Program-made: the position numbers and the translations under genes
In this document: piece by piece, positions 7,060 to 63,302 of the stretch
How positions within the stretch are numbered: position 1 is the stretch's first letter
Layout: each line of letters opens with the position of its first letter
DNA from: an uncultured virus (IMG/VR IMGVR_UViG_3300009124_000008)
Lineage: Duplodnaviria > Heunggongvirae > Uroviricota > Caudoviricetes
Virus record (IMG/VR): IMGVR_UViG_3300009124_000008
Direction: 5' to 3' (one strand)
DNA length: 64,000 nucleotides
Notes under the pieces: model-generated
What the model was told of the DNA's origin: nothing
Database searches by the model: none
Seen by the model: the letters and a program-made list of their open reading frames with translations, nothing else

Positions 7060-7220
7060 ATTGTTTTGAAGAAGCATTGAAACACTTTGGTACACGTGTT
7101 GAAGTAATCACAGCAATGGAAATGTCACGACGTATCTCTGCTGAAGATGCTTATCAAATGATTAAGGATGAACTCAAAGAAGTAAAGAAATGCCGTAAAC
7201 AATTTAACAAAAATGATTAG
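7044..7220 (+). CDS. small helical hypothetical protein (58 aa)
   Basis: Read by hand: MYEELNCFEEALKHFGTRVEVITAMEMSRRISAEDAYQMIK... Confidence 0.65.
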   Translation: MYEELNCFEEALKHFGTRVEVITAMEMSRRISAEDAYQMIKDELKEVKKCRKQFNKND

Positions 7221-7279
7221 CACTCTCTACATACTATTCTTCATACTTACACTAACAATCACAATGGAGCTTACATGGG

Positions 7280-7498
7280 GTGTCAAGAAGTAAATGGTCT
7301 CATGGTGGACTACAACCCAATAGCATTAACATACTAAGACTAATCAGTGAACTAGAAGGTTGCTATCAACTAACCAAATACATGGCATTTGATGATGACA
7401 ACAAAATCATTACAGAGATGAAGCAACGCTACTATAAACTATACTACAAGACAGTAAAAGAGGAGAAGAACAATGTATCAAGTACAAACATGGGATGA
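7280..7498 (+). CDS. hypothetical protein
   Basis: ORF track; GTG start. Confidence 0.6.
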   Translation: MSRSKWSHGGLQPNSINILRLISELEGCYQLTKYMAFDDDNKIITEMKQRYYKLYYKTVKEEKNNVSSTNMG

Positions 7499-7655
7499 TG
7501 AGTTTAAATGTGTACGCTATCACTCCGTAGCTGATGCTATTGACTATGATGATGCTGTTGATGTAGTTAAAGGTTTACACCCTAATGAAAGACTATTAGG
7601 TGTTACGTTTTCCACACTTGCGGAAAAGGTTGTGGAAAAACCTGTGGAAAAGTAA
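7473..7655 (+). CDS. hypothetical protein
   Basis: ORF track; GAGGAG upstream; 3' end runs through the DnaA-box cluster. Confidence 0.6.
   Translation: MYQVQTWDDEFKCVRYHSVADAIDYDDAVDVVKGLHPNERLLGVTFSTLAEKVVEKPVEK
7608..7651. promoter_or_regulatory. cluster of four cyanobacterial-type DnaA-box-like 9-mers
   Basis: TTTTCCACA 7608-7616 (+); TGCGGAAAA 7619-7627, TGTGGAAAA 7631-7639 and 7643-7651 (-), at 12-bp period. Confidence 0.6.
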
Positions 7656-7751
7656 TGTATTAAAAAATATAGGGTGAATGATGTATAGATGCTTTAAATG
7701 TGCTCTGGTGTTGTTGGCTTAGCACGCCACCCAACGACTGTCAAGCACTCG

Positions 7752-7810
7752 TAGACACCCCTCAAAGTGGCACACAGACCCCTCTCAGGGCATCCTAGGC
7801 ACTGTATAAT
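7752..7810 (+). promoter_or_regulatory. early promoter, dyad type (copy 4)
   Basis: TAGACA-N10-TGGCAC (7752-7773), 31 bp, TGTATAAT (TATAAT 7805-7810). Confidence 0.8.
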
Positions 7811-7817
7811 TACTATG

Positions 7818-7911
7818 TTCTGAAAAACACGAAAAACTCAAAAAAATCAAAAAACCAGAAAGTTAAAATTCTTAAAAAGTGAGAATTTTGAGTTTTTTCG
7901 ATTTTTCAGAA
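7818..7911. repeat. AT-rich imperfect inverted repeat (about 26-bp arms)
   Basis: TTCTGAAAAACACGAAAAACTCAAAA (7818-7843) vs TTTTGAGTTTTTTCGATTTTTCAGAA (7886-7911). Confidence 0.8.
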
Positions 7912-7940: not shown

Positions 7941-8171
7941 ATGTTTTTCGAGAAATTTGAATCTTCAGCAGTTAAATCTATTGAAGTAGATGATAATATT
8001 GTTACTATAGTGTTTAATTCTTCAGATAAAGAATACAAATACAATATTATTGATGAAGAGTTTACAAATACTCTTCAAGATAGTATTATGAATAACAAAT
8101 CAATTGGTAGTTTGATTAATAAATCAATCAAAGATAAATTGATTGTTGAACTAAATACTACTACTATTTGA
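7941..8171 (+). CDS. KTSC-domain-like protein
   Basis: SSAVKSIEVD..IVTIVF...EYKY...SIGSLINKSIK fits the KTSC pattern SSxI..I..D..LxVxF..YxY..SxGxxxNxxIK. Confidence 0.6.
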   Translation: MFFEKFESSAVKSIEVDDNIVTIVFNSSDKEYKYNIIDEEFTNTLQDSIMNNKSIGSLINKSIKDKLIVELNTTTI

Positions 8172-9335: not shown

Positions 9336-9392
9336 TGACCAGTTGGGTAAGTGGCACACAAAATGGGCACAGCACCCCAGACCGTGTATTGT
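9336..9392 (+). promoter_or_regulatory. early promoter, dyad type (copy 7)
   Basis: TGACCA-N10-TGGCAC, 29 bp, TATTGT (9387-9392). Confidence 0.8.
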
Positions 9393-9398
9393 AGACAC

Positions 9399-9569
9399 AT
9401 GAACAAAACCACTTCCAATCCCTACATCGCCCAGATCTACGCTAAGGGTCGGGACTATGTGCCCACCCCTGCCAAGATGCCTGAGTTCCCTAAGACTATT
9501 CATGGTCGGACCTTTGAGACCGAGGCAGAGTATCGTGAGGCAATTGCTGACATGCTCAACGGCATGTGA
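9399..9569 (+). CDS. hypothetical early protein, probably leaderless
   Basis: ORF 9351..9569; ATG 9399 is 6 nt after the -10 hexamer. Confidence 0.7.
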   Translation: MNKTTSNPYIAQIYAKGRDYVPTPAKMPEFPKTIHGRTFETEAEYREAIADMLNGM

Positions 9570-9902: not shown

Positions 9903-10067
9903 ATGACTGAGACTAAGTTCATCATCAGCGGACGATTTGAGCGCCCTAATGGTTGGGTAATGAGAGATGAGTTGGCATACATTAGCCCCAGTAAAAAGGA
10001 GGCAATTGAGACATGCCAGCGCCTCAATCCTAACTTTCACATTCACACTGTGAGAGAGGAGGATTAG
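9903..10067 (+). CDS. hypothetical protein
   Basis: ORF 9837..10067; ATG 9903. Confidence 0.65.
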   Translation: MTETKFIISGRFERPNGWVMRDELAYISPSKKEAIETCQRLNPNFHIHTVREED

Positions 10068-10099
10068 GGGCACTAATTAACACTAACCCCGCGGCTGCC

Positions 10100-10158
10100 C
10101 GACCAGTTGGCACACTGTCCACTATCGCCCTGAAACCGTCCGACCCCGTGCCTATAAT
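10100..10158 (+). promoter_or_regulatory. early promoter, dyad type (copy 8)
   Basis: CGACCA-N10-TGTCCA, 31 bp, TATAAT (10153-10158). Confidence 0.8.
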
Positions 10159-10164
10159 GGTTTC

Positions 10165-10323
10165 ATGAACAACGATCAACGGATCCGCTCCAACCTCGCC
10201 GCCTTCGGTGAGAACTATACACCCCCTTTCAACTGGTCTCAGTCTGAGAACTTCGGGCAGGGTGCCTGCCTGACTGCCAAGCAAGTTGAGAAGCGTCGCC
10301 GTCGTGCCCTATGGACCGCCTGA
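10165..10323 (+). CDS. small early protein (52 aa), probably leaderless
   Basis: Read by hand: MNNDQRIRSNLAAFGENY...; ATG 6 nt after TATAAT. Confidence 0.65.
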   Translation: MNNDQRIRSNLAAFGENYTPPFNWSQSENFGQGACLTAKQVEKRRRRALWTA

Positions 10324-10370
10324 GGCACTGTCCACCATTTCCCCCAAAGCACCCCATCTGCTGCCATACT
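10313..10370 (+). promoter_or_regulatory. early promoter, dyad type (copy 9)
   Basis: GGACCG-N10-TGTCCA, 30 bp, CATACT (10365-10370). Confidence 0.7.
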
Positions 10371-10376
10371 AGTCTC

Positions 10377-10562
10377 ATGATCAAACAACACAACGGAATG
10401 TTCCTTCTCAACGAGACCGCTGCCAACGACCCCGCTGTACAGGGTGCGATGACATCCTACATGCAGCAACTCGCCCGCGAGGCAGCATATCGCAAGGCAG
10501 TTCGTGAGGGTCGCGCTGCCACCAGTCAGTCGGGCAACTGGCACATCAGCGACCGTGACTGA
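10377..10562 (+). CDS. hypothetical early protein, probably leaderless
   Basis: ORF 10311..10562; ATG 10377 is 6 nt after the -10. Confidence 0.7.
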   Translation: MIKQHNGMFLLNETAANDPAVQGAMTSYMQQLAREAAYRKAVREGRAATSQSGNWHISDRD

Positions 10563-10581
10563 GCGGCAGACCGACTAGGAT
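10523..10581 (+). promoter_or_regulatory. early promoter, dyad type (copy 10)
   Basis: CAGTCA-N10-TGGCAC, 31 bp, TAGGAT (10576-10581). Confidence 0.7.
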
Positions 10582-10610
10582 ACACACAACACACAAACAG
10601 AGATCACACG

Positions 10611-10862
10611 ATGAACGGTTGGGCAAACTACGAGACTTGGAACGCCGCCCTGTGGATCGGCAACGATGAATTCCTCTATAACACTGCTAAGGCATGTGTG
10701 ACCTATAGAGAGGCAGGCATTGAGACCCCTTGGGAGAAGTTCGTTCGCTGTATGACTGACGGGCAGATCGGACGCCACCTCGTCAAGACTGGCGACGGCG
10801 TGGCATGGGATGACCCCGCCATCGATGCCGACGAGATGAACGAGATGCTGTGGGACCTGTGA
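10611..10862 (+). CDS. conserved phage hypothetical protein
   Basis: NGWANYETWNAALWIGNDEFLY N-terminal motif recalled from many phage hypothetical proteins. Confidence 0.8.
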   Translation: MNGWANYETWNAALWIGNDEFLYNTAKACVTYREAGIETPWEKFVRCMTDGQIGRHLVKTGDGVAWDDPAIDADEMNEMLWDL

Positions 10863-10916
10863 CGATCGGGGCACTGTCCCCCATGGGGTAGGCATTGCCG
10901 CCCTGGGCTCTACAAT
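10859..10916 (+). promoter_or_regulatory. early promoter, dyad type (copy 11)
   Basis: GTGACG-N10-TGTCCC, 30 bp, TACAAT (10911-10916). Confidence 0.7.
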
Positions 10917-10940
10917 ACACACAACACAGACAAACGACCA

Positions 10941-11165
10941 ATGCCCACCGCTGACTTCGCTGTTCAACCCAAGTCATTCGGCACCTTTGACGAGTGGGGT
11001 TGCCTCTGGGCGACTGACATCAACCACGCCTACCAACTGGCAGCAACCCTAGAGGAGGACGCTGTGATCTGGCGCTGCCCCCACCAGGGCAACCCCATGG
11101 CATGGGTCACAGTGAAGGCAGACGAGGCAGGCATTGAGGCGATCGCTTCCCTGTTGTTCGATTGA
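10941..11165 (+). CDS. hypothetical early protein
   Basis: ORF track; downstream of a promoter. Confidence 0.7.
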   Translation: MPTADFAVQPKSFGTFDEWGCLWATDINHAYQLAATLEEDAVIWRCPHQGNPMAWVTVKADEAGIEAIASLLFD

Positions 11166-11191
11166 CGGGCAGCGCCCCCATCCTGTACAGT
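11162..11191 (+). promoter_or_regulatory. sigma70-type promoter
   Basis: TTGACG-18 bp-TACAGT. Confidence 0.6.
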
Positions 11192-11212
11192 ACACACAAC
11201 ACACAGCACAGC

Positions 11213-11413
11213 ATGAACTTCGCCACAGCATCCAAAGCAGAACTCATGGCAGCAGGGTTTGCATTCAAGACGGTTCGCCCACGTCGCCCACGCAAGGGTG
11301 AGTTGATCTGCCAGCGAGTCGGATTTAAAACCAAGCGAGGCAGTCAGCAATGGCGACAGCGTGAGCACATCTCCTCTCCCTCTGCCTACGCTGTGGTGAT
11401 GGGCAACGGGTAG
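11213..11413 (+). CDS. small basic early protein
   Basis: ORF 11162..11413; ATG 11213. Confidence 0.65.
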   Translation: MNFATASKAELMAAGFAFKTVRPRRPRKGELICQRVGFKTKRGSQQWRQREHISSPSAYAVVMGNG

Positions 11414-11796
11414 GGCAGTCTACCACACAGGGGCGGGGGGGGACAGTTAATGCCCCCTTGCCCCCCTAGCGCCCCCGCGCCAAGCGATCCCAAAAAAGTA
11501 CCTTCTTTCTAACCTACAAACGTTTCCCAGCGCCCTCGATATTTTCAACGAAATAAAAAAAAATTCCCCAGGTAAAAAAGCATGAGAAAAGGTCAACCAT
11601 TACGAAAGACCACTGAGATCTGGAAGGTACATCAACAGCGAAAACGCTTAAAGGAATACTATGGTAGGCAAAAAAATTCCGTGGGTACAAAACGCCCTGG
11701 GAGGTCGAGCACTAAATATGTAAGAACCCCCAATATTGGGTGGAAAATCATACAGCTACTAGTGAGGGTAGTACGTAAGTTTATCAAAAAAAGACA

Positions 11797-13692: not shown

Positions 13693-15489
13693 ATGCCTTC
13701 ATACGTACAAGTCGCTAATTTAGACTTTCAAGACATCAAAACTGCTCTCAAAGATTATCTAAGGGCACAATCAGACTTTACTTCATATGATTTTGAAGGA
13801 TCAGCGATGAATGTCCTGCTGGACGTTCTTGCTTATAATACTTACTATACAGCGTTTAACGCTAACATGGTAGTTAATGAGTTGTTTCTTGACTCTGCTA
13901 CCCTTCGTGATAACGTCGTAGCACTTGCTAAACAGTTAGGATACAAACCCAAGTCAAAAACCGCCCCTAAGGCAAAGATTACCTTTGAGGTAGATTATCC
14001 CCAAAGTGCTCCCGAAACCGCCGTACTGAGGAAGGGAACAGGGTTTACGACAGTATTTGATGACACTCTCTATACATACGTCGCTATTGAGGATCAAACG
14101 GCACCTGTAGAGAATGGCACTGCTTATTTTAATGATATTGAAATTTACGAAGGCACATTAATTACAAATAACTTTCTTGTAACGACAGACAGACCACAAA
14201 GATTTATCTTACAAAATAGTGGCGTCGATATTGATTCAATTAGAGTAAAAGTTTACAATAGCACCCAATCGACAGCTTTTTCTTGGTATGAGTATGCCGA
14301 CAATATTCTTAATGTAGAACCAAACTCCAAAGCATTCTTTTTAGAAGAAATTGAAGATGAACGCTACGAATTATTCTTTGGTGATGGTGTTCTTGGAAGA
14401 AAGTTAGAGAACGGCGAAAAAATTGAAGTATCGTATCTTGTTACTAATGGTGAAGACACCAATGGTGCTAGGAATTTCACTTACAATGGTGTTTTACAAG
14501 ATTTATTTGGTGGCACTGGATATCCCACTGTTGTTTCTATTACTAGCACCGAACCTTCAAATGGTGGTGCTGGAATTGAAAGCATTTCTAAGATTAAATT
14601 TAATGCTCCTAAGTTTTTTGCCACTCAGGACAGAGCGGTAACTGCTGCTGACTATGGTGCTATTATCAGAAACTTGTATCCTGCTATTTCCGACATAATT
14701 ACATTTGGCGGGGAAGAGGATGAACCACCCGAGTATGGCAAAGTAAAAATTGTTGTCAAACCAGAGAACGCTGCTACTTTATCTACAACAACTAAGAGAG
14801 ATTTAACAGCAAAACTTAAGAAGTACATGGTTGCTTCGGTAACACCAGAGATTGTTGATCCATCTATTCTTTATGTTGAGGTTACCAGTCAAATTTATTA
14901 CTCACTAACAAAAACGACTCAAAGACCTGAGCAAATTAAAGCAAAGGTTGTCACATCTGTGGAAAACTATTTGAAACAGGCAGATGTAGAGCAGTTTAAT
15001 GGTAAATTTAGATACAGTAAATTTGTATCTACAATCGATAATGCTGATGCCAGTATTAGTTCTAATACTAGTAGTATTACATTGAGAAAAGATTTCGTTC
15101 CACAAATTAATTCAACTTCATATTATGAGTTGTGTTATCAGAACATTTTTGACAAGGACTGTGAGGGATCGACCGTTGCTTCAACTGGGTTTAAGGTATC
15201 TGAGTTCCCAACGTACACAGTGTATTTTGAGGATAGAGATGGCGTAATCGTCCTATATAGAATAGACAATTTGACAGGCGAAAAGATCACACTTAACGAC
15301 TCTTTGGGTACAGTAGATTATGAAAAAGGCGAAATTAAGTTATACGATTTAACTATCGTTCAAGGTAGTTTTGGTGATAATAAGATTGAAGTTCGTGTAA
15401 GACCCAAAAACTTAGATATTGTTGCTTTGAGAGAAGTGTATCTAGATGTTGATTTGACTAAGAGTAAGTTCACGGCATACCCAGAGTAA
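13693..15489 (+). CDS. gp6: baseplate wedge subunit gp6
   Basis: LDFQDIK, YDFEGS, LLDVLAYNTYY, QDRAVTAADY. Confidence 0.95.
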   Translation: MPSYVQVANLDFQDIKTALKDYLRAQSDFTSYDFEGSAMNVLLDVLAYNTYYTAFNANMVVNELFLDSATLRDNVVALAKQLGYKPKSKTAPKAKITFEVDYPQSAPETAVLRKGTGFTTVFDDTLYTYVAIEDQTAPVENGTAYFNDIEIYEGTLITNNFLVTTDRPQRFILQNSGVDIDSIRVKVYNSTQSTAFSWYEYADNILNVEPNSKAFFLEEIEDERYELFFGDGVLGRKLENGEKIEVSYLVTNGEDTNGARNFTYNGVLQDLFGGTGYPTVVSITSTEPSNGGAGIESISKIKFNAPKFFATQDRAVTAADYGAIIRNLYPAISDIITFGGEEDEPPEYGKVKIVVKPENAATLSTTTKRDLTAKLKKYMVASVTPEIVDPSILYVEVTSQIYYSLTKTTQRPEQIKAKVVTSVENYLKQADVEQFNGKFRYSKFVSTIDNADASISSNTSSITLRKDFVPQINSTSYYELCYQNIFDKDCEGSTVASTGFKVSEFPTYTVYFEDRDGVIVLYRIDNLTGEKITLNDSLGTVDYEKGEIKLYDLTIVQGSFGDNKIEVRVRPKNLDIVALREVYLDVDLTKSKFTAYPE

Positions 15490-51587: not shown

Positions 51588-52085
51588 ATGTTTTATGATG
51601 TAATTGAAAATTTTCTAAGTGAAGAAGATTTTGGTGATCTTGTAACAAATACACTCAATAATATATACTTCCCATTGTTTCTAAAGCAGCGTGTCGCTGC
51701 TTCTTGGACTAACGATGGGATTTATTTTACACATTGTTTTTGGCAGAATGATGGGGTTAACAGCGATTTTTACAAGCATATAGTTCCAATTCTAGATAAG
51801 TTATCACCAAATAAAATCAAAAGAATTCAATTTAATTTGTACCCAAAAACCCACGAAATTGTACGCCACGACTGGCATGTTGATGAACCAGACGATCATA
51901 AGGGTTGTATATTATATCTAAATACTAATGACGGACAAACGTTATTGAGAGAATCGGAAGATAGTGCTATAGGTATTAGATCTATTGCTAATCGAGCATT
52001 ATTTTTTAATCCAGCAAAACCTCACTGTAGTACAACTTGTACTGATAAAGAATTTAGATCAAATATTATTTTCAACTATGAGTGA
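51588..52085 (+). CDS. 2OG-Fe(II) oxygenase
   Basis: WHVD, CILYLNTNDG.T, NRALFF...H, R.NI.FNY. Confidence 0.8.
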   Translation: MFYDVIENFLSEEDFGDLVTNTLNNIYFPLFLKQRVAASWTNDGIYFTHCFWQNDGVNSDFYKHIVPILDKLSPNKIKRIQFNLYPKTHEIVRHDWHVDEPDDHKGCILYLNTNDGQTLLRESEDSAIGIRSIANRALFFNPAKPHCSTTCTDKEFRSNIIFNYE

Positions 52086-52746
52086 ACTACATAATGTGTT
52101 TTCGATACCTGTATGGAAAACAAAGATTACAGAATCTGATTATAATAAAAAATTAATTCTCAATGAAATGTTGGACAACTTTAAAGTTGATCCAAAGAGA
52201 AACACTTGGGATAAGGTGATGCCCACTACTATGAAAAGTGTGTGGCACCACTCAAATAATGATGAAGATGATAAAAGATTTACTTCGATTAGTTATGAAG
52301 AATCTGGTCTTACTAAAATAATAGATTCTAGAATTAGAGAATTCTTTTCTCATTGTAGATTTACATCCGACGTAAATTATTTTTTTCAGATTACAAACTA
52401 TACTGTATCTACAGAAGGTTATTTTCTTACTAGTCATGGACATGGACAAGACTCTTTTAGTTCCGTCTTGTTCTTACAATACGATAAACTAAATCATCCA
52501 TCGACATATTTTAATAATCCATATTCAGCGGCAGATCAAACACGTTGGTTACAAAAAGATCTTTATAATTCTATTGATCACAAAGATCCATTTTTTAGTT
52601 ATTTCCAAGATGTATGGTCTATCGAAACTGAAGAAGATGACTATATGATTTTCCCTGGACATGTTAAACATGAAGTTCCTACTGTAGGAAAATCAGACAA
52701 AGAACGTGTTACCATTTCCTGTAATATTAAAGTGTATAAACCATGA
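52078..52746 (+). CDS. 2OG-Fe(II) oxygenase (HxH type)
   Basis: HGH..SFSSVLFL, IFPGHVKHEV, RVTISCN; ATG 52078. Confidence 0.8.
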   Translation: MSELHNVFSIPVWKTKITESDYNKKLILNEMLDNFKVDPKRNTWDKVMPTTMKSVWHHSNNDEDDKRFTSISYEESGLTKIIDSRIREFFSHCRFTSDVNYFFQITNYTVSTEGYFLTSHGHGQDSFSSVLFLQYDKLNHPSTYFNNPYSAADQTRWLQKDLYNSIDHKDPFFSYFQDVWSIETEEDDYMIFPGHVKHEVPTVGKSDKERVTISCNIKVYKP

Positions 52747-54302
52747 GTAAGATTATTAATAGCATAACAGTTGTTGGTGGTGGTAGTGCTGGATGGATGA
52801 CCGCCGCTACTTTGTGTAGGTTTTTCCCCAACCGAAAAATTACGGTAATTGAAAGTCCTGATATTCCTATTGTTGGTGTTGGTGAAAGCACATTAGGTCA
52901 GATCAATCATTGGTTGTATGCTCTTGGTATCAATGATGATGAGTTTATGAAAGAATGTGATGCTTCTTACAAGTTGAGCATCAAGTTCACAAATTTTTAT
53001 AAGAAGAATGATGGTGGATTTCATTATCCTTTTGGAGCTCCATATTTAAAGGATACAGAACTTGGTTACAATGATTGGGGGTTAATTAAATTATTTTACC
53101 CAGCCATACCAAATATTGATTTTGCTCGATGTTACAATCCTGCTACTACCCTAGCAGAAAACAATAAAATCTCTATGAACACTAGAGGTGAGTTTGACAA
53201 TTTCAATTTCAAGAAAGATACTGCTTATCACTTCGATGCCGTAAAGTTTGGTCAGTGGTTGAAGAATAATTACTGCCTTCCCAGAGGTGTAGTTCTAATC
53301 AACAAAAATGTTGAGAATGTAATTACAAATGATGATGGCATTGAGAAGTTAATTCTTGATGATGGTTCAGAACATACATCAGATCTATTTGTAGATTGTA
53401 CAGGATTCAAGAGTCTTCTCTTACAGCAAGCAATGGATGAGGAGTTCATTTCTTATGAGGACATTCTACCAAACAACAAAGCATGGGCAACTAAACTTCC
53501 ATACACAGACAAGGATAAACAACTAGAACCATTCACAAACTCAACTGCTTTATCTAATGGTTGGGTATGGAACATTCCACTATGGAGTAGAATTGGTACA
53601 GGTTATGTTTATAGTGATAAATTTACAACTAAGGAAGATGCTTTAGAAGAGTTTAAAGAATACTTAGGTAGAGATGATTTAGAATTCAAAGACATCTCTA
53701 TGAGAATTGGTATTCATAAGAGAACTTGGGTTAAGAATGTAGTTGCCATTGGTTTGTCGGCAGGATTTATTGAACCACTAGAAAGTAATGGTTTGTTTAC
53801 TGTTCACGAATTCTTGCTTAAACTAGTCAAGTCTTTGTCCAAAGAATCAATCAATCAGTTTGATAGAGACACATACAATCTAGTCACCAGAGATATGTTT
53901 GATGTCTTTGCTACTTTTGTATCTCTTCATTATAAACTAAGTGCTAGAGACGATTCGGAATATTGGAGATATATAACTGAGAAAAGTGTGGAAAGAGATG
54001 AGATTAATTTAATCCCACAACTACAATCTGACTTTAGGAATCTCGCTCAAGCAAAGTTATACAATGAAGAATTTATGTTGAATAGTGGCACTCCATATAT
54101 CGCTATGGGAATGAACTATAGTATAATTAATGACCAAACATTATTATCATGGGAGTATTATCATGGCAAAAATTACAAAGAAATTGCTGATAGAGCGTAT
54201 ACTATGTTCGGTAAAAGAAAAAGTTTATGGCAACAAGCAGCATACATATCCCCAACATTGAACCAATTTTTGGCAAATAAATATAACAGTGAGGTCGTTT
54301 GA
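52743..54302 (+). CDS. prnA: flavin-dependent halogenase (tryptophan halogenase/PrnA family)
   Basis: VVGGGSAGW, GVGEST, ASYKLSIKF (catalytic Lys position), YHFDA, GWVWNIP, FIEPLESNG. Confidence 0.92.
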   Translation: MSKIINSITVVGGGSAGWMTAATLCRFFPNRKITVIESPDIPIVGVGESTLGQINHWLYALGINDDEFMKECDASYKLSIKFTNFYKKNDGGFHYPFGAPYLKDTELGYNDWGLIKLFYPAIPNIDFARCYNPATTLAENNKISMNTRGEFDNFNFKKDTAYHFDAVKFGQWLKNNYCLPRGVVLINKNVENVITNDDGIEKLILDDGSEHTSDLFVDCTGFKSLLLQQAMDEEFISYEDILPNNKAWATKLPYTDKDKQLEPFTNSTALSNGWVWNIPLWSRIGTGYVYSDKFTTKEDALEEFKEYLGRDDLEFKDISMRIGIHKRTWVKNVVAIGLSAGFIEPLESNGLFTVHEFLLKLVKSLSKESINQFDRDTYNLVTRDMFDVFATFVSLHYKLSARDDSEYWRYITEKSVERDEINLIPQLQSDFRNLAQAKLYNEEFMLNSGTPYIAMGMNYSIINDQTLLSWEYYHGKNYKEIADRAYTMFGKRKSLWQQAAYISPTLNQFLANKYNSEVV

Positions 54303-54308
54303 ATTATT

Positions 54309-54911
54309 ATGGCATACGAAGCTATTTGGTATTACACCAGCATTCCTGATGATGTTGTTGATTGTTTATCTAGAGATTTAGAAAATCTTACTAACAATGA
54401 TGAGTTTTTAGAATCTCAAACTAAGTCAGGTCCTGACTATCAAATGAGAGATAGTTCTAATCTATGGATTCCAGATACTCACTGGGTCTGTGGATTAATG
54501 TGGCACTACATTAACTTGGCAAATAAAAATAACTTTAGATACGACATTGATGGATTTGATGGAGGATCTATCCAATACACTAGATACCAAACTGATAATT
54601 ATTACAATTGGCATAAAGATGATGGAGTAGGTAATGCTTATACACCTCTTCCAGATCCACAAGAAGATTTTATAGTCAGTAACACACAAAAGATTAGAAA
54701 GCTTTCTATTACTGTACAATTATCTTCCCATGAAGATTATACTGGTGGTGAAGTTCAGTTTATGGAAGATCAAAAGAAAACATTTTTTGCTCCGAAGAAA
54801 AAAGGAACAGTAATCGTTTTCGATAGTCGATTGCCACATAGAGCAAAGAAAGTTTTAACTGGAGAAAGACGTTCTCTGGTTGGTTGGGTAGTTGGTCCAC
54901 AATGGAGGTAA
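54309..54911 (+). CDS. 2OG-Fe(II) oxygenase (PKHD-like)
   Basis: WHKD, RKLSITVQLS, YTGG, FDSRLPHR, RRSLVGW. Confidence 0.88.
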   Translation: MAYEAIWYYTSIPDDVVDCLSRDLENLTNNDEFLESQTKSGPDYQMRDSSNLWIPDTHWVCGLMWHYINLANKNNFRYDIDGFDGGSIQYTRYQTDNYYNWHKDDGVGNAYTPLPDPQEDFIVSNTQKIRKLSITVQLSSHEDYTGGEVQFMEDQKKTFFAPKKKGTVIVFDSRLPHRAKKVLTGERRSLVGWVVGPQWR

Positions 54912-54912
54912 T

Positions 54913-55485
54913 ATGAGAGAGTGGGATGATTGGTCTGTTATTTTAGTTCGTCAATTAATAGATCCTGTGTATCTTTTCCAACCTATTCCATGGGAAAGAG
55001 GTCAGTACACATACAGGTCTTCTGGAAATGTAGTGGTAGATACAAGTGAGAGGCAGGTTCCTGGTAGTATTTCTAGATACAACCACCCTCACTACAGAGA
55101 AATTTATTACGATGTAAAAAACAAAATACAAGAAATAATTAACGAATCCTTATATCCTACGTATTACTACGATAGGTTTTATTTCAAAAATCAAGAACTA
55201 ACTCCACATAAAGATAGACCATCTTGTGAAGTCAGTGTTTCTTTACATTGTTCTAATAACTTAGATTATGAATGGCCTATATGGTTTGATACACCAGACG
55301 GAGACAAAGTTCCTTTGACAACAAATCCTGGTGATGCTGTCATATATAAAGGATGTGAACGTGAACATTGGCGTGAACCAATGAAAGGAAATCACAAATC
55401 ATACTACCACCAAATCTTTTTCCATTATGTAAGAAGAGATGGACCTTACATTGAACATGCCTTTGACTCTCCTAATCGAAGATAA
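54913..55485 (+). CDS. 2OG-Fe(II) oxygenase-like protein
   Basis: HKDRPSCEVSVSL, PGDAVIYKG...HWRE, QIFFHYV; GGAGGT RBS. Confidence 0.8.
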   Translation: MREWDDWSVILVRQLIDPVYLFQPIPWERGQYTYRSSGNVVVDTSERQVPGSISRYNHPHYREIYYDVKNKIQEIINESLYPTYYYDRFYFKNQELTPHKDRPSCEVSVSLHCSNNLDYEWPIWFDTPDGDKVPLTTNPGDAVIYKGCEREHWREPMKGNHKSYYHQIFFHYVRRDGPYIEHAFDSPNRR

Positions 55486-55488
55486 ATA
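55482..55488 (+). promoter_or_regulatory. late promoter
   Basis: ATAAATA before glycine-rich gene 2. Confidence 0.65.
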
Positions 55489-55514
55489 CTTAGAGACACT
55501 ACCGCCCGATAAAC

Positions 55515-56708
55515 ATGTCGAATTTAAATGTTGGTGAAGCTGTTGTAGGATCGGAGTTAAACCTACCGATCCACACTAATTCATCAAGACCTACTGGAGC
55601 ACCTCCAGGTCATATGATTTTTAATCAGCAAGAGGGAAAGATTCAAATTTATGATGGATCTGAATGGATTTCTATTGGATCTACTAATTACGATATTTCT
55701 GCTACTGGTGATGTAACCACTTTTGATCTTACTGGAGATAATGCTGGGGATAGAGTTATCAAATTTACTGGTGATGGAACACTGACCATAAACAATGCTT
55801 CTACTGATAAAGGTATTGATCTTTTGATTATTGGAGGTGGCGGCGGTGGCGGTGGTGTTATCGGCGGCGGGGGCGGCGCTGGTGGCACATTGTATAAGAG
55901 AAATCTCCAACTTCCAGTTGGTACGTACCAAATTACTGTTGGTTCTGGTGGTCTTGGTGGTAGGGGATGGAACAACGTTGACCAAGAAGGAAGAGCAGGT
56001 CAACCATCTATATTAGTTGGTGGCGATATCATTTACGAAGCTGTAGGTGGTGGCGGTGGTGAAGCACATGGTGGATCTAGTGGTCCTGGTTTTTCTGGGT
56101 CTGGTGGTTGTGGCGGTGGATCCGCTAACAGATCTAGACGTGGTGGTTCTGCCGTAGGTAATGCTTTTGGTTATATAGAAACTCTACAGACTCCACCTAG
56201 ATCAGCCAGTAATGATGCTTATGCTGAAGGGGCTGGTGTTCTAGGATCCCACACAGCCAACACAGGCGGTAATAACAGTGCTCTTGTAAAAAGAGGTATC
56301 CAAGGTTGGCCAGGTGGAAATTGGGGAGGTGGAGACACTGGCGCTGGTGGCGGCGGTTGTGGTTACTGTGGTACTAATGGAGGAGCACCAAGAGATGTTG
56401 GTGGTCCTGGTGGTCCTGGATGCTATATGGAAATTGAAGGCACCCTAAAAGCATATGCTGGTGGAGGTGGCGGAGGTGTCCGTGGTACTGGAAGACAAAG
56501 AGGTGTGGGTGGTGTAGGTGGAGGCGGCGAAGGTGGTAGAAACACCTTGCTTCCTGCTGATTATGGTTCAAATAATGGAGAAGCTGCCGAAAACGGTCAG
56601 GTAAACACTGGTGGAGGCGGCGGCGGAGCAGGTTATAATGGTGGTAGTAGCTCCACCATCGGAGGCACTGGTGGTCCTGGTATTGTAATTGTTCGCTATA
56701 AAAAGTAA
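55515..56708 (+). CDS. glycine-rich domain protein 2 (paralogue of 50524)
   Basis: Same N-terminal module, LLIIGGGGGGG, NTGGGGGG, GGPGIVIVRY. Confidence 0.8.
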   Translation: MSNLNVGEAVVGSELNLPIHTNSSRPTGAPPGHMIFNQQEGKIQIYDGSEWISIGSTNYDISATGDVTTFDLTGDNAGDRVIKFTGDGTLTINNASTDKGIDLLIIGGGGGGGGVIGGGGGAGGTLYKRNLQLPVGTYQITVGSGGLGGRGWNNVDQEGRAGQPSILVGGDIIYEAVGGGGGEAHGGSSGPGFSGSGGCGGGSANRSRRGGSAVGNAFGYIETLQTPPRSASNDAYAEGAGVLGSHTANTGGNNSALVKRGIQGWPGGNWGGGDTGAGGGGCGYCGTNGGAPRDVGGPGGPGCYMEIEGTLKAYAGGGGGGVRGTGRQRGVGGVGGGGEGGRNTLLPADYGSNNGEAAENGQVNTGGGGGGAGYNGGSSSTIGGTGGPGIVIVRYKK

Positions 56709-56709
56709 A

Positions 56710-57030
56710 ATGGATTTAACATATATTGCTTCACTAACTGAAGATCAAAAGCAAGTTTTAGCCGATCTATTAAATCATATTAACGACGAAGAACCATTTG
56801 GTCCTGGCGTTAGTTCTGATTGGGTCATTAAAATGAGAGAGGATCTTCGTTTATCTACTCCCAAAAGAGAAGATCTTGAGAGATGTAGAATGCTACAGTT
56901 GCTCAATAGATCAGAAGCTAAAGTAGGTTATACTGTCGATGACTTGACAACTCCCGATGGTCTACCTGTTGTTAGAATTGTTGGGTCAACTGTAGAACTT
57001 GATAAATTACTTGATACTGACACAGAATGA
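56710..57030 (+). CDS. hypothetical protein
   Basis: ORF 56689..57030; ATG 56710. Confidence 0.65.
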   Translation: MDLTYIASLTEDQKQVLADLLNHINDEEPFGPGVSSDWVIKMREDLRLSTPKREDLERCRMLQLLNRSEAKVGYTVDDLTTPDGLPVVRIVGSTVELDKLLDTDTE

Positions 57031-57635
57031 GATTTGATATTTTGCCATTGTTCTCTAGTCCTCTTACATTATCTAAATTAAATTTAAATACAAATTTGAT
57101 TCTTGAGAAGTTAAAAGAGACTGAGTACATTGAGACTCTTGACTCTCAAAATAGTCAGACAAACATACACTCTAGAATATCCAAATCTAAAAATATTCTA
57201 GAATATTTTCCAGAGTTACAAAGTAATATTATAGAGCACTTATCTTTTTATATTAAAGATGTGTTGAAGTACGAAGATCTACAATTCAAAATCACTAGTT
57301 CTTGGGCATCACTAACTCTTTCTGGTCATAGTGGAGAATCACATTCACACAAGAACAGTTGGTTGAGTGGAGTTTTTTATCCAGAAGACGGTAGCAATAT
57401 TTTATTCAATGATGGATATAGATTTTTCTACCACGAACCCACAGAGTATAATCTGTGGAATTCATCAAACTGGGCAATTCCAGCAGAAGAGAACTTATTA
57501 ATCTTTTTCCCAAGTCATTTATCACATCAAATAACTACAAACACATCAAAAAACAATAGATATTCTATTGCTTTTAATGTATTCCCTTGTGGTATGTGGG
57601 GCGAGGGAGATTCTATAAATAATATCGTATCGTAA
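57027..57635 (+). CDS. 2OG-Fe(II) oxygenase (HxH type)
   Basis: HSHKNSWLSGVFY, FFPSHLSH, RYSIAFN. Confidence 0.85.
   Translation: MRFDILPLFSSPLTLSKLNLNTNLILEKLKETEYIETLDSQNSQTNIHSRISKSKNILEYFPELQSNIIEHLSFYIKDVLKYEDLQFKITSSWASLTLSGHSGESHSHKNSWLSGVFYPEDGSNILFNDGYRFFYHEPTEYNLWNSSNWAIPAEENLLIFFPSHLSHQITTNTSKNNRYSIAFNVFPCGMWGEGDSINNIVS
57614..57621 (+). promoter_or_regulatory. late promoter
   Basis: TATAAATA. Confidence 0.75.
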
Positions 57636-58722: not shown

Positions 58723-59844
58723 ATGCCAACATCACCTTACTTTCCCACTTACTACGGCGGATATTCTGGCGAGCAAAACCTCGTACAGGATCTGGTTGAC
58801 GAACAGATTAAACTGTTTGGATCAGATATCTATTACATGCCTAGGACAATCCTGAAAGACAATACTTTAGATGACATCATCTATTCGAAGTATCAGTCAC
58901 AGTTTCAAATTGAAATGCTCCTGGAAAATGTAACTGGATTTGGAGAGACATCAGAATTCATTAGTAAGTTTGGTCTACGCATCACAGATGAAATCAAGTT
59001 CCGAGTGTCTACAAGACGTTGGGATGAAGAAGCAGCGTCATATGATCTTACTGTGGATGGTAGACCTAATGAAGGTGATCTTTTATACTTCCCATTAACT
59101 CAAGACTTATACGAGATCAAGTTTGTAGAACGAGAGCAACCCTTCTATCAGATGGGCAAACTACAGTTCTATACAATGACTGCCGAGATCTATGAGGTTG
59201 GCAGTGATCTCATTGATACTGGTGTTGAAGAAATTGATGAGATTGAAACTAAGTTCTCCAGTTCTATCAGACTCTTTATGGACCCTGGTGGTACGGGGAA
59301 CTTCCAAGTTGGTGAGGAAATTGTCGGAGATGAATTCCTTGCTAAGGCAACAGCAAGTATTAGTGGAGACGCTGTAGGTAATGTAGTTATGACAGACACA
59401 GGTCTGTACTACAACCAAGCACTGCCACCAACAGTTACATTCTCTGGAGGAGGAGCAACTACAGATGCTACAGGAACTGCCACAGTTAGCGCGACGGGTC
59501 TTGTTACTGGTGTTATTATCACTGACGGCGGGGTTGGGTATACATCAGAACCTACGGTCACCATCGATTATTCGCCAAAGGACAATAGAGCGGAAGTCAA
59601 GTCCTGGGATAGTGCCACTAGAGCACTCGAAGTTATCAACAGAACAGGAACGTTTACTACTGCTGAAGTAGTAACTGGTCTAACTTCAGGTGCCAAGTGG
59701 AGTCCTGAGTCCTATAACACTCTAAATAATACCAACAGCAGCTACGATCAAAATTATGAGATCGAACAAGAGGCTGACGAATTAATCGATTGGGGTGAAG
59801 TTAATCCCTTCGGTGAGTATGGTAACTTTATGGATTCATTCTAA
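58723..59844 (+). CDS. gp14: neck protein gp14
   Basis: EQNLVQDLVDEQIKLFG, SKFGL, RPNEGDLLYFP, NPFGE. Confidence 0.95.
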   Translation: MPTSPYFPTYYGGYSGEQNLVQDLVDEQIKLFGSDIYYMPRTILKDNTLDDIIYSKYQSQFQIEMLLENVTGFGETSEFISKFGLRITDEIKFRVSTRRWDEEAASYDLTVDGRPNEGDLLYFPLTQDLYEIKFVEREQPFYQMGKLQFYTMTAEIYEVGSDLIDTGVEEIDEIETKFSSSIRLFMDPGGTGNFQVGEEIVGDEFLAKATASISGDAVGNVVMTDTGLYYNQALPPTVTFSGGGATTDATGTATVSATGLVTGVIITDGGVGYTSEPTVTIDYSPKDNRAEVKSWDSATRALEVINRTGTFTTAEVVTGLTSGAKWSPESYNTLNNTNSSYDQNYEIEQEADELIDWGEVNPFGEYGNFMDSF

Positions 59845-61341: not shown

Positions 61342-62138
61342 TGGCACAGTGGAACAAGGATGCTCAAGACTATAGAGCACAGGACACAACAAACTTTGAA
61401 GTAGTGATGATTGCCGATGAAGACGGCAACCCTATCAACTCGTTTGGTGCTGCTTCAAACATTCCTATTGCTGGTGGACAGATTGAAGGATACAATTACG
61501 TTCATAAGTTTGGTGCTAACACAGCATTAGACAACCAAAATTACGAAACTATCTGGGATGGTAGTAGTTTATATCCTTGGGCGACCATGGATACTGCTGC
61601 TACTACACTAACTACGAATGCTGAAGCTGGTAATAGCGGAGCAGAGATTACTATTCAGGGATTGAATGAGAACTGGGAACTAACAACAGAAGTTCTCACT
61701 CTTGATGGCACAGCACAAACTACATCAAATTCATGGAAGCGTGTGTTCCGTGGTTTTGTTTCTGGATCACAAGAAATTACTGCTGACTTCACATTATCAA
61801 AGGGTGCTGTTGTAGTTCTACAAATTGGAACTGAAGCTCAACAAACTTTGATGTCAATTTATACTATCCCTGCTGGTAAGACAGGATATCTATTCAACCT
61901 TGATGCTACTACGCTCAAGAATGAACAAGTTACGATGAAAATAAAGGCAAGATTGTTTGAGAAAATTTTTAGAACACAGCATATCTTCCAAGTTGCTGGC
62001 GTTCATTACAACCATACATTTACAGTTCCGCTATACTTCCCAGAGAAAACTGATATTGATTTGAGAGCGATTGGTGGTTCTTCTGGTCTTGATGCTTACG
62101 CCCATTTTGATTTGATACTTGTAGATAACGAGGTATAA
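61341..62138 (+). CDS. hypothetical (probably virion) protein
   Basis: MAQWNK.., VHKFG, YTIPAGKTGY, PEKTDIDLR. Confidence 0.8.
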   Translation: MAQWNKDAQDYRAQDTTNFEVVMIADEDGNPINSFGAASNIPIAGGQIEGYNYVHKFGANTALDNQNYETIWDGSSLYPWATMDTAATTLTTNAEAGNSGAEITIQGLNENWELTTEVLTLDGTAQTTSNSWKRVFRGFVSGSQEITADFTLSKGAVVVLQIGTEAQQTLMSIYTIPAGKTGYLFNLDATTLKNEQVTMKIKARLFEKIFRTQHIFQVAGVHYNHTFTVPLYFPEKTDIDLRAIGGSSGLDAYAHFDLILVDNEV

Positions 62139-62978: not shown

Positions 62979-63302
62979 ATGAAGTTTTTCTTTGCGCTTC
63001 TGTCAACACTATTTCTGGCACTTCCTGCATGGGCAGTAGATGTCCAGATGGGTGCTAATGGCAACCTAGTATTCGAACCTGCTGAGGTATCAATCAATGC
63101 TGGAGAATCTGTTCATTTTATTAACAATATGCTACCACCACATAATGTCGTGGTTGATGGTCACCCTGAGTGGTCCCACGAAGGTTTAGCAATGTTACCA
63201 GGTGAGGACTTTGAGTTGACATTTCCAGAGGCAGGTGATTATACTTACTGGTGTGCTCCCCACAAAGGTGCGGGCATGATCGGTACAATTCATGTCTCAT
63301 AA
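62979..63302 (+). CDS. petE: plastocyanin
   Basis: Signal peptide, LVFEPAEV, NNMLPPHNVV, YWCAPHKGAGMIG. Confidence 0.96.
   Translation: MKFFFALLSTLFLALPAWAVDVQMGANGNLVFEPAEVSINAGESVHFINNMLPPHNVVVDGHPEWSHEGLAMLPGEDFELTFPEAGDYTYWCAPHKGAGMIGTIHVS

Follow-up and report, generated by a model that had tools for sequence, protein, structure and literature searches.

A cluster of cyanobacterial-type DnaA boxes in a T4-like cyanophage lies at one position of a conserved control module, and we found that related phages carry either such boxes or unrelated motifs at that position, in helical register with a promoter-like core. We tentatively read the boxes as an exchangeable, phased docking site at which host DnaA, which likely binds the cluster, would regulate the adjacent predicted promoters without opening an origin. 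The window is a 64,000-nucleotide stretch of IMG/VR record IMGVR_UViG_3300009124_000008, a fragment (39% complete) with a contig of 74,677 bp. Structural genes on the contig are of T4 type (baseplate, neck and terminase small subunit) and occur together with PetE, and 219 of the 220 records that match it come from Synechococcus, Cyanophage or Prochlorococcus phages. The phage is a T4-like cyanomyovirus (Kyanoviridae), closest to Synechococcus phages.

A cluster of DnaA boxes at the head of a small-gene module

An earlier note on this DNA had described one plus-strand box and three opposite-strand copies at a 12-bp period, one of them mismatched, with AT-rich DNA after them. We recovered this arrangement at 7608-7651, where 44 bp hold three perfect copies of TTTTCCACA and one variant, the minus-strand boxes being spaced at 12 bp; the AT-rich stretch follows at 7653-7673. 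The features of the region, in window coordinates, are as follows.

7473-7655, plus strand: small ORF of 60 amino acids, phrog_1093, function not assigned; a 43-position profile matches residues 2-42
7608-7616, plus strand: perfect cyanobacterial-type DnaA box TTTTCCACA, head-to-head with the tandem series
7619-7627, minus strand: variant box TTTTCCGCA with one mismatch
7631-7639, minus strand: perfect box TTTTCCACA, on the 12-bp period
7643-7651, minus strand: perfect box TTTTCCACA, closest to the promoter core (61 nt away)
7653-7673, no strand: conserved AT element containing an A-tract, retained in relatives regardless of slot content, among the least stable 1.3% of 25-bp windows
7674-7712, no strand: spacer, varying in length among relatives by units of 10-11 nt
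7713-7744, minus strand: promoter-like core that faces the boxes, with TTGACA (7744-7739), 17 nt and TAAGCC (7721-7716)
7764-7774, plus strand: GTGGCACA-type motif, predicted upstream element of early promoters
7805-7810, plus strand: TATAAT, predicted -10 hexamer of a rightward promoter, 59-62 (or 70-71) nt from the core in relatives
7818-7911, no strand: A/T-tract inverted repeat with 26-nt arms, 85% complementary, a candidate unwinding element that begins the least stable stretch of the contig
7941-8171, plus strand: first gene of the small-gene module, phrog_4357, function not assigned, syntenic in 11 named cyanophages

The clustering exceeds chance. A 9-mer scan of the contig, of the kind that the earlier note had suggested, found that TTTTCCACA alone among 45,994 distinct 9-mers has three exact, non-overlapping copies within 44 bp, and neither of two Markov orders, with 300 simulations each, gave a pair of copies within that distance (0/600). 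The total count is mildly high (four, against a shuffle mean of 1.11; at least four in 2 of 100 shuffles), and the single further perfect copy, as had been claimed, lies at 14958 within a baseplate wedge gene. RNA folding of the box region gave structure only through the head-to-head boxes (z = -2.6). A contig from a public estuary run is identical to the window across 7157-7690, and this run may be the source sample. Run X1 contains a population variant at position 7620 that lacks 2 bp of the imperfect box (depth 24.7 of 169).

The suspected coding overlap is real: the boxes sit in the 3′ tail of ORF 7473-7655, whose last 16 codons cross them and encode a C terminus ending in AEKVVEKPVEK. This VEK tail is common only to the 98%-identical homologue L004. 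The earlier note had set as its refuting case that relatives would keep the VEK peptide alone, and the comparison went the other way. Eight of nine translated homologues end differently (L012 and L013 were omitted as repeats of L011), and in L005 and L006 the boxes persist 3′ of the ORF stop codon. Among 32 related modules with at least two boxes, the boxes are non-coding in 25 and crossed by an ORF of at least 35 amino acids in the other seven. The cluster is conserved as DNA and not as VEK peptide, and the tail is private to this lineage. The position of the boxes in an ORF tail here, together with those seven modules, could point to chance or to a by-product of the peptide repeat; given the non-coding majority, the homologues without the tail, the boxes beyond the stop codon and the simulations, we consider this origin scarcely credible.

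The boxes match those of the hosts

The identity of the 9-mer, as stated in the earlier note, agrees with the literature: TTTTCCACA is a cyanobacterial DnaA box, and domain IV of Cyanothece DnaA binds pairs of it in vitro (PMC4674748, PMC4009838). The repeated 9-mer of the cluster is TTTTCCACA, not TTATCCACA. At 26 dnaN loci representing presumed hosts, reached through two records titled Synechococcus, we observed TTTT-type boxes, mostly with one mismatch, and no TTATCCACA. A single perfect box is present at 11 of these loci and none at 15, six loci being cut by the record start, and the TTTTCCGCA variant occurs three times among the 26. Each of five host genomes carries 10-16 perfect boxes, no more than a reversed control (8-17), and never three within 50 bp. 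All five encode DnaA. A search for dnaA in five named phages and on this contig found no such gene, so any DnaA acting at the cluster is proposed to be host-derived. Conserved perfect box pairs also occur far from dnaN in the marine Synechococcus host records G003, G011, G012, G014 and G017, in all five head-to-head and about 270-290 bp apart; where checked, they adjoin DUF2811 and DUF1818 genes and are candidate DnaA-regulated or titration loci.

To place the cluster among phages, we counted closely spaced boxes. Two perfect TTTT boxes lie within 50 bp in 11 of 21 named cyanophages, a sample in which eight records had been chosen for box similarity (seven positive) and the remaining 13 gave four positives. 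Such a pair is absent from T4 and HTVC008M, and TTATCCACA pairs were found in none of 23 phage records. Across IMG/VR we estimate that about 2,000 stretches have TTTT-type pairs (5 of 64 parts scanned). Their spacings fall at 11, 12, 20, 21 or 22 bp in 129 of 166 cases and at 15, 18 or 24 bp in 10. A shuffled 9-mer gave about 590 stretches, with 132 of 158 spacings at multiples of three and 77 at 15, 18 or 24 bp. E. coli-type (TTAT) pairs occur in an estimated 10,000 or so viral stretches (1 of 64 parts), with 128 of 157 spacings at 11-12 or 20-22 bp. A large share of the viruses in these counts are not cyanophages. The abundance of both pair types means that the general purpose of paired boxes may differ from promoter control.

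Anatomy of the control module

Alignment with 12 named phages revealed a conserved order: variable slot, AT element, spacer, core, GTGGCACA motif, TATAAT, A/T inverted repeat, phrog_4357 and small genes. In the modules compared, the gap between the AT element and the last box is mostly 9-10 or 20-22 nt. The -10 of the core matches at two of six positions and the promoter scanner made no call there, so the leftward core may instead be a protein-binding site; the Syn9 core has no -35. The GTGGCACA-type motif, which we take to be the published Syn9 early-promoter element, recurs ahead of small genes at 585, 8610, 9351, 10114, 10327 and 10538. In RNA folding, the A/T inverted repeat forms a long hairpin (z = -3.4). 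Scans of the window returned no Rfam match, no tRNA gene, no promoter above chance and no terminator, and two RNA runs contained small shares only, which do not amount to evidence of expression.

Several neighbouring elements vary among relatives. In 40 of 76 modules, a conserved CTAGTGATAGCAAGGGTT-like element resembling an IHF or HU site lies to the left of the slot; the window does not have it, and there the upstream ORF reaches the boxes directly. A second head-to-head box pair lies about 1 kb downstream in S-RIM32 (61859-61880), Syn1 (59749-59771) and ACG-2014e (58977-58999), directly before a promoter of the same type that precedes a gene resembling 9351-9569 of the window; the window has no boxes there. 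Several complete records also begin or end within about 1.5 kb of the module, S-H9-1 (862-944) and IMG/VR L396 among them, possibly at assembly breaks and possibly at a preferred packaging or end site. In the S-PM2 record (L257, AJ630128.1 17414-19333), tRNA genes are annotated over the box cluster and over protein genes, and their coordinates look misplaced.

Slot contents are exchanged among relatives

A pattern for the core gave 111 matches in IMG/VR, of which 96 were distinct and 76 were kept as modules. A downstream-motif filter removed 13 rows, four of which look like chance and nine like divergent true modules (eight with boxes); five rows with less than 200 nt upstream and two matches judged by eye to be chance (L337 and L347) were also removed. 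Because the modules were gathered by the core pattern, conservation of the core is built in and divergent modules are under-sampled. In the 76 modules, the slot contains DnaA boxes in 36, a Fur-box-like motif in 20 (L413 assigned by eye), a CCCCCTCGGTGAA-type motif in 12, a GGATACTACCCAA-type motif in two and nothing recognized in six. DnaA boxes and Fur-like motifs share a slot in only one of 78 rows (Fisher p = 1.3e-5, with rows that are not independent). On a tree of the core (75 rows, 130 columns, without L439), the DnaA label changes nine times, at least five of these changes being forced by well-supported branches, with a bootstrap that had not settled.

The Fur-box-like motif, TTGA(G/T)AATCAAT, is usually present in two copies with an inverted TTCTCAATA between them. 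It is carried by L283 (S-WAM2, 53500-53592), L284 and L302 and by the 20 IMG/VR modules (for example, L341, L353 and L366). The close relatives S-WAM2, S-RSM4 and S-H9-1 have no perfect DnaA box anywhere in their genomes (186-194 kb), and their slots hold 2 of 2, 1 of 1 and 2 of 3 genome-wide copies of the Fur-like motif, respectively. The CCCCCTCGGTGAA motif fills the slot in L356, L368, L378, L423, L441 and Sf-CH1b (L299) and is inverted upstream in L426 and L432; GGATACTACCCAA occurs in L376, L434, ACG-2014e and S-CAM4. An NtcA-like reading of the ACG-2014e slot (GTA-N8-TAC) was not supported as a class.

The reverse complement of the Fur-like motif, TTATTGATTCTCAAT, has ATTCTCAAT in common with the Anabaena FurA consensus (PMC4005646). 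In the five host genomes, the exact motif has one match, beside non-iron genes. Allowing one mismatch gave eight matches: one precedes a flavodoxin gene by about 600 bp, and the others give no link to iron. A Fur-like profile scored higher upstream of 20 host flavodoxin matches than at dnaN controls, but about equally downstream, and AT-rich islands confound this comparison.

Slot motifs are in helical register with the core

Box-to-core distances, measured from the last box, cluster at 40, 50-51, 61-62, 71-72, 79-82, 92, 104, 114 and 124 nt, with one module at 76. The best-fitting period is 10.5 bp (R = 0.86 over 33 modules, 0.72 over the 16 distinct lengths), and none of 2,000 random sets reached either value. 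Fur-like motifs and the third motif are phased to the core too (2 and 1 of 2,000 random sets, respectively, on distinct lengths), as is the core-to-TATAAT distance, which is mostly 59-62 or 70-71 nt. Box position is therefore constrained relative to the promoter core in a 10.5-bp register, as looked for at DnaA-regulated promoters. Since the spacer changes in units of 10-11 nt, slippage may contribute to this phasing and could account for it in place of selection. We also considered whether the spacer units are weak DnaA sites and rejected this: in DnaA-type modules they match the box at no more than about 4.6 of 9 positions on average, and modules with other slot motifs gave similar values.

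The module lacks the layout of a host origin

The earlier note had proposed that the cluster mimics oriC and recruits host DnaA for initial replication. The basal unwinding layout of origins comprises a box, GC, DnaA-trios and AT-rich DNA (PMC8287927). Using patterns that approximate the published program (PMC8287927) and are not identical to it, we found strictly defined CTA trios 3′ of a box at 24 of 26 host dnaN loci versus 1 of 36 phage modules. A looser trio score ran from 6 to 8 in hosts and from 4 to 7 in phages, overlapping at 6, and was at least 7 of 9 in 14 of 26 host loci versus 2 of 36 phage modules; the window scored 6, from the coding stretch left of the cluster. An oriC layout, with a minimum of three DnaA-trios no more than 16 bp from a box and AT-rich DNA after them, was not recovered here. 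In 33 of 36 modules, the AT-proximal box faces away from the AT element, opposite to the host polarity, and AT-rich unwinding DNA is not found 3′ of the box strand. Nor is the cluster retained by all relatives, as an oriC would be, since S-WAM2, S-RSM4 and S-H9-1 are without a perfect box. The oriC mimic is not supported, because trios are mostly missing (less cleanly so by the looser score), the AT element is on the opposite side and close relatives have no boxes.

By nearest-neighbour values, no 100-bp window of this contig, S-RIM32 or Syn1 is less stable than the A/T block, which ranks second in the box-less S-WAM2; Syn9 has boxes, yet its module is outside its eight least stable windows. 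A cumulative-skew check, which the earlier note had suggested, revealed no genome-scale inversion at the module in four genomes, in which the skew follows the coding strand. Small negative GC-skew dips occur at the module in three of the four (S-RIM32, Syn1 and S-WAM2), and dips occur elsewhere too. The layout of a T4-type R-loop origin is present as sequence, with TATAAT at 7805 and then the least stable stretch, although not in Syn9.

DnaA might still assist an origin, with the bound protein helping to open AT-rich DNA or loading the host helicase for the first replication round, in the manner of an oriC mimic or of an accessory of the iteron-plasmid kind. We regard this as unlikely. The low stability of the A/T block, the 9-10 or 20-22 nt between the AT element and the last box and the skew dips would all fit such a role, as would the prediction of a single theta origin in Syn9 (PMC2984593). 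Of the 11 listed modules whose boxes lie downstream of the core, nine have them 100-290 nt away from it, near the A/T block, which suits an origin equally. Set against this are the trio counts, with the overlap noted for the looser score, the orientation of the AT-proximal box, S-WAM2 with its low-stability block and no boxes, the stability rank of Syn9 and the lack of skew inversion. Cyanomyoviruses, furthermore, encode their own replisome (PMC2984593), and P-SSM4 carries an annotated gp59 loader.

Interpretation and alternatives

We favour a regulator site because the element is optional, is swapped for unrelated motifs and keeps helical register with the promoter core. Host DnaA would bind through domain IV soon after DNA entry, and the bound protein, the A-tract and the core might assemble into a single bent nucleoprotein complex in contact with RNA polymerase or with a core-bound factor. 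Such a complex could tune how strongly, or when, transcription starts from the predicted rightward promoter, which stands at the head of the small-gene module and reads into the A/T palindrome. Should that promoter and the palindrome together make up a T4-type R-loop origin, DnaA would have indirect control over the first start of replication. The effect on the promoter could be either activation or repression, and both modes of transcriptional control are known for DnaA (PMC13438810). An extension of this reading, which we think doubtful, is that the slot serves as a plug-in host-sensing socket into which lineages swap sites for regulators of the host (DnaA reporting replication state, Fur reporting iron, and others) at one phased position, gating early genes, and perhaps the first replication start, on host physiology.

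The earlier note had also raised the possibility that the cluster titrates DnaA and halts host replication. Titration loci of the datA or DBC type are clusters of high-affinity boxes that lower free DnaA, and perfect phage boxes could in principle outcompete the host origin and stall initiation there. As host dnaN loci have at most one perfect box, and the five host genomes carry just 10-16 each and never three within 50 bp, replicated phage DNA would exceed the host in perfect sites. A single infecting genome, however, adds only three or four, a sponge does not need helical register, a different motif could not substitute for it, and 10 of 21 named cyanophages have no close pair. A pure sponge leaves both the register with the core and the replacement by unrelated motifs without explanation, and we judge it quite improbable; titration may be a side effect of the cluster. 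It is similarly improbable that another protein, of phage or host, binds the 9-mers and that their match to the DnaA box is inherited or incidental. DnaA binding here is a prediction, the slot accepts several motifs, and T4 oriE carries 12-nt repeats at even intervals, with no defined role (PMC3016281). The match is nevertheless exact over nine bases and follows the host variant, its 3-bp gap is that reported for T5 DnaA-box pairs (10.1101/866236), and canonical-type pairs elsewhere prefer 11-12 or 20-22 bp, whereas the shuffled 9-mer shows codon spacings.

A tether or entry signal in the style of the T5 injection stop, with membrane-bound DnaA catching incoming DNA at the module, seems very unlikely to us. 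In T5-like phages, box pairs 3 bp apart lie in a non-coding repeat region by the pre-early genes (10.1101/866236, in silico). Several records start or end near the module (S-SCSM1 at 903, S-SZBM1 at 614, S-E7 at 177070 of 177622 and S-H9-1 at about 900). Record starts are often arbitrary, however, the T5 model is itself in silico, and relatives without boxes exist. The genomes of T4-like phages are also usually circularly permuted, which counts against a tether.

Relation to known systems

The nearest published phage case that we found is the T5 injection-stop region, described in an in silico preprint (Davison, 10.1101/866236). As here, host-type boxes lie in non-coding DNA of a lytic phage, beside early genes, in pairs 3 bp apart and at whole-turn spacing. 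The T5 boxes are of E. coli type, lie in the terminal repeat of a siphovirus that injects in two steps and are kept by all T5-likes compared, whereas the boxes studied here are of TTTT type, belong to a T4-like myovirus, are optional and are exchanged for other motifs. Cyanobacterial oriC, upstream of dnaN (PMC4674748, PMC4009838, PMC8287927), has the same 9-mer and TTTTCCGCA, boxes in tandem or head-to-head and AT-rich DNA nearby. The module differs in having no CTA trios 3′ of the box, an AT element on the other side, a location away from dnaN and dispensability in relatives, and it holds more perfect boxes than the origins of marine hosts.

DnaA-regulated promoters, such as those of E. coli dnaA and nrdAB and P. 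aeruginosa gidAB-parAB, similarly have a box cluster by the promoter and do not need unwinding elements (PMC13438810); the module departs from them in belonging to a lytic phage and in a site interchangeable with non-DnaA motifs, and its regulation is predicted. The T4 origins oriF and oriG, which use R-loops, likewise have a promoter followed by an easily unwound stretch, and oriE has repeats spaced at 12 nt (PMC3016281). The T4 origin promoter is MotA-dependent (PMC3016281), and the cyanophage module is a putative origin only. The word DnaA is absent from that T4 replication review (PMC3016281).

A literature search, mostly of titles and abstract openings, found no paper on DnaA boxes in cyanophages, and the literature examined contained no mapping of replication start or of the coupling of early expression to host state in T4-like cyanophages. 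What this analysis adds is the identity of the motifs that replace one another in the slot and the phasing of slot to core. The module offers a short, defined target, a 44-bp site with a phase rule that predicts which edits matter, and cultured phages provide natural alleles, with boxes in S-PM2, Syn1 and S-RIM32 versus none in S-WAM2 and S-RSM4. If the alternative motif is a Fur box, abundant ocean viruses would take their infection timing from iron in certain lineages and from the host replication cycle in others. The estimated 12,000 or so viral stretches with phased box pairs suggest that phages commonly use host DnaA sites and that this has received little study.

Other features of the contig

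Downstream of the module, positions 10001-11500 form a GC-rich island (53-61%, versus a contig value of 40%) whose small genes carry recurring promoter motifs and ACACACAACACA leaders, and GC skew is positive from about 11750 onward. The PetE plastocyanin gene lies at 62979-63302. Phage-like PetE matches also occur in a Synechococcus bin, on a 194-kb contig, and in a Euryarchaeota bin (L277 and L279), where they are probably cyanophage DNA that was mis-binned. We also observed, amid the structural genes at 51985-57635, a cluster of three 2OG-Fe(II) oxygenase genes with a tryptophan-halogenase-like gene and a gene annotated as ferrochelatase.
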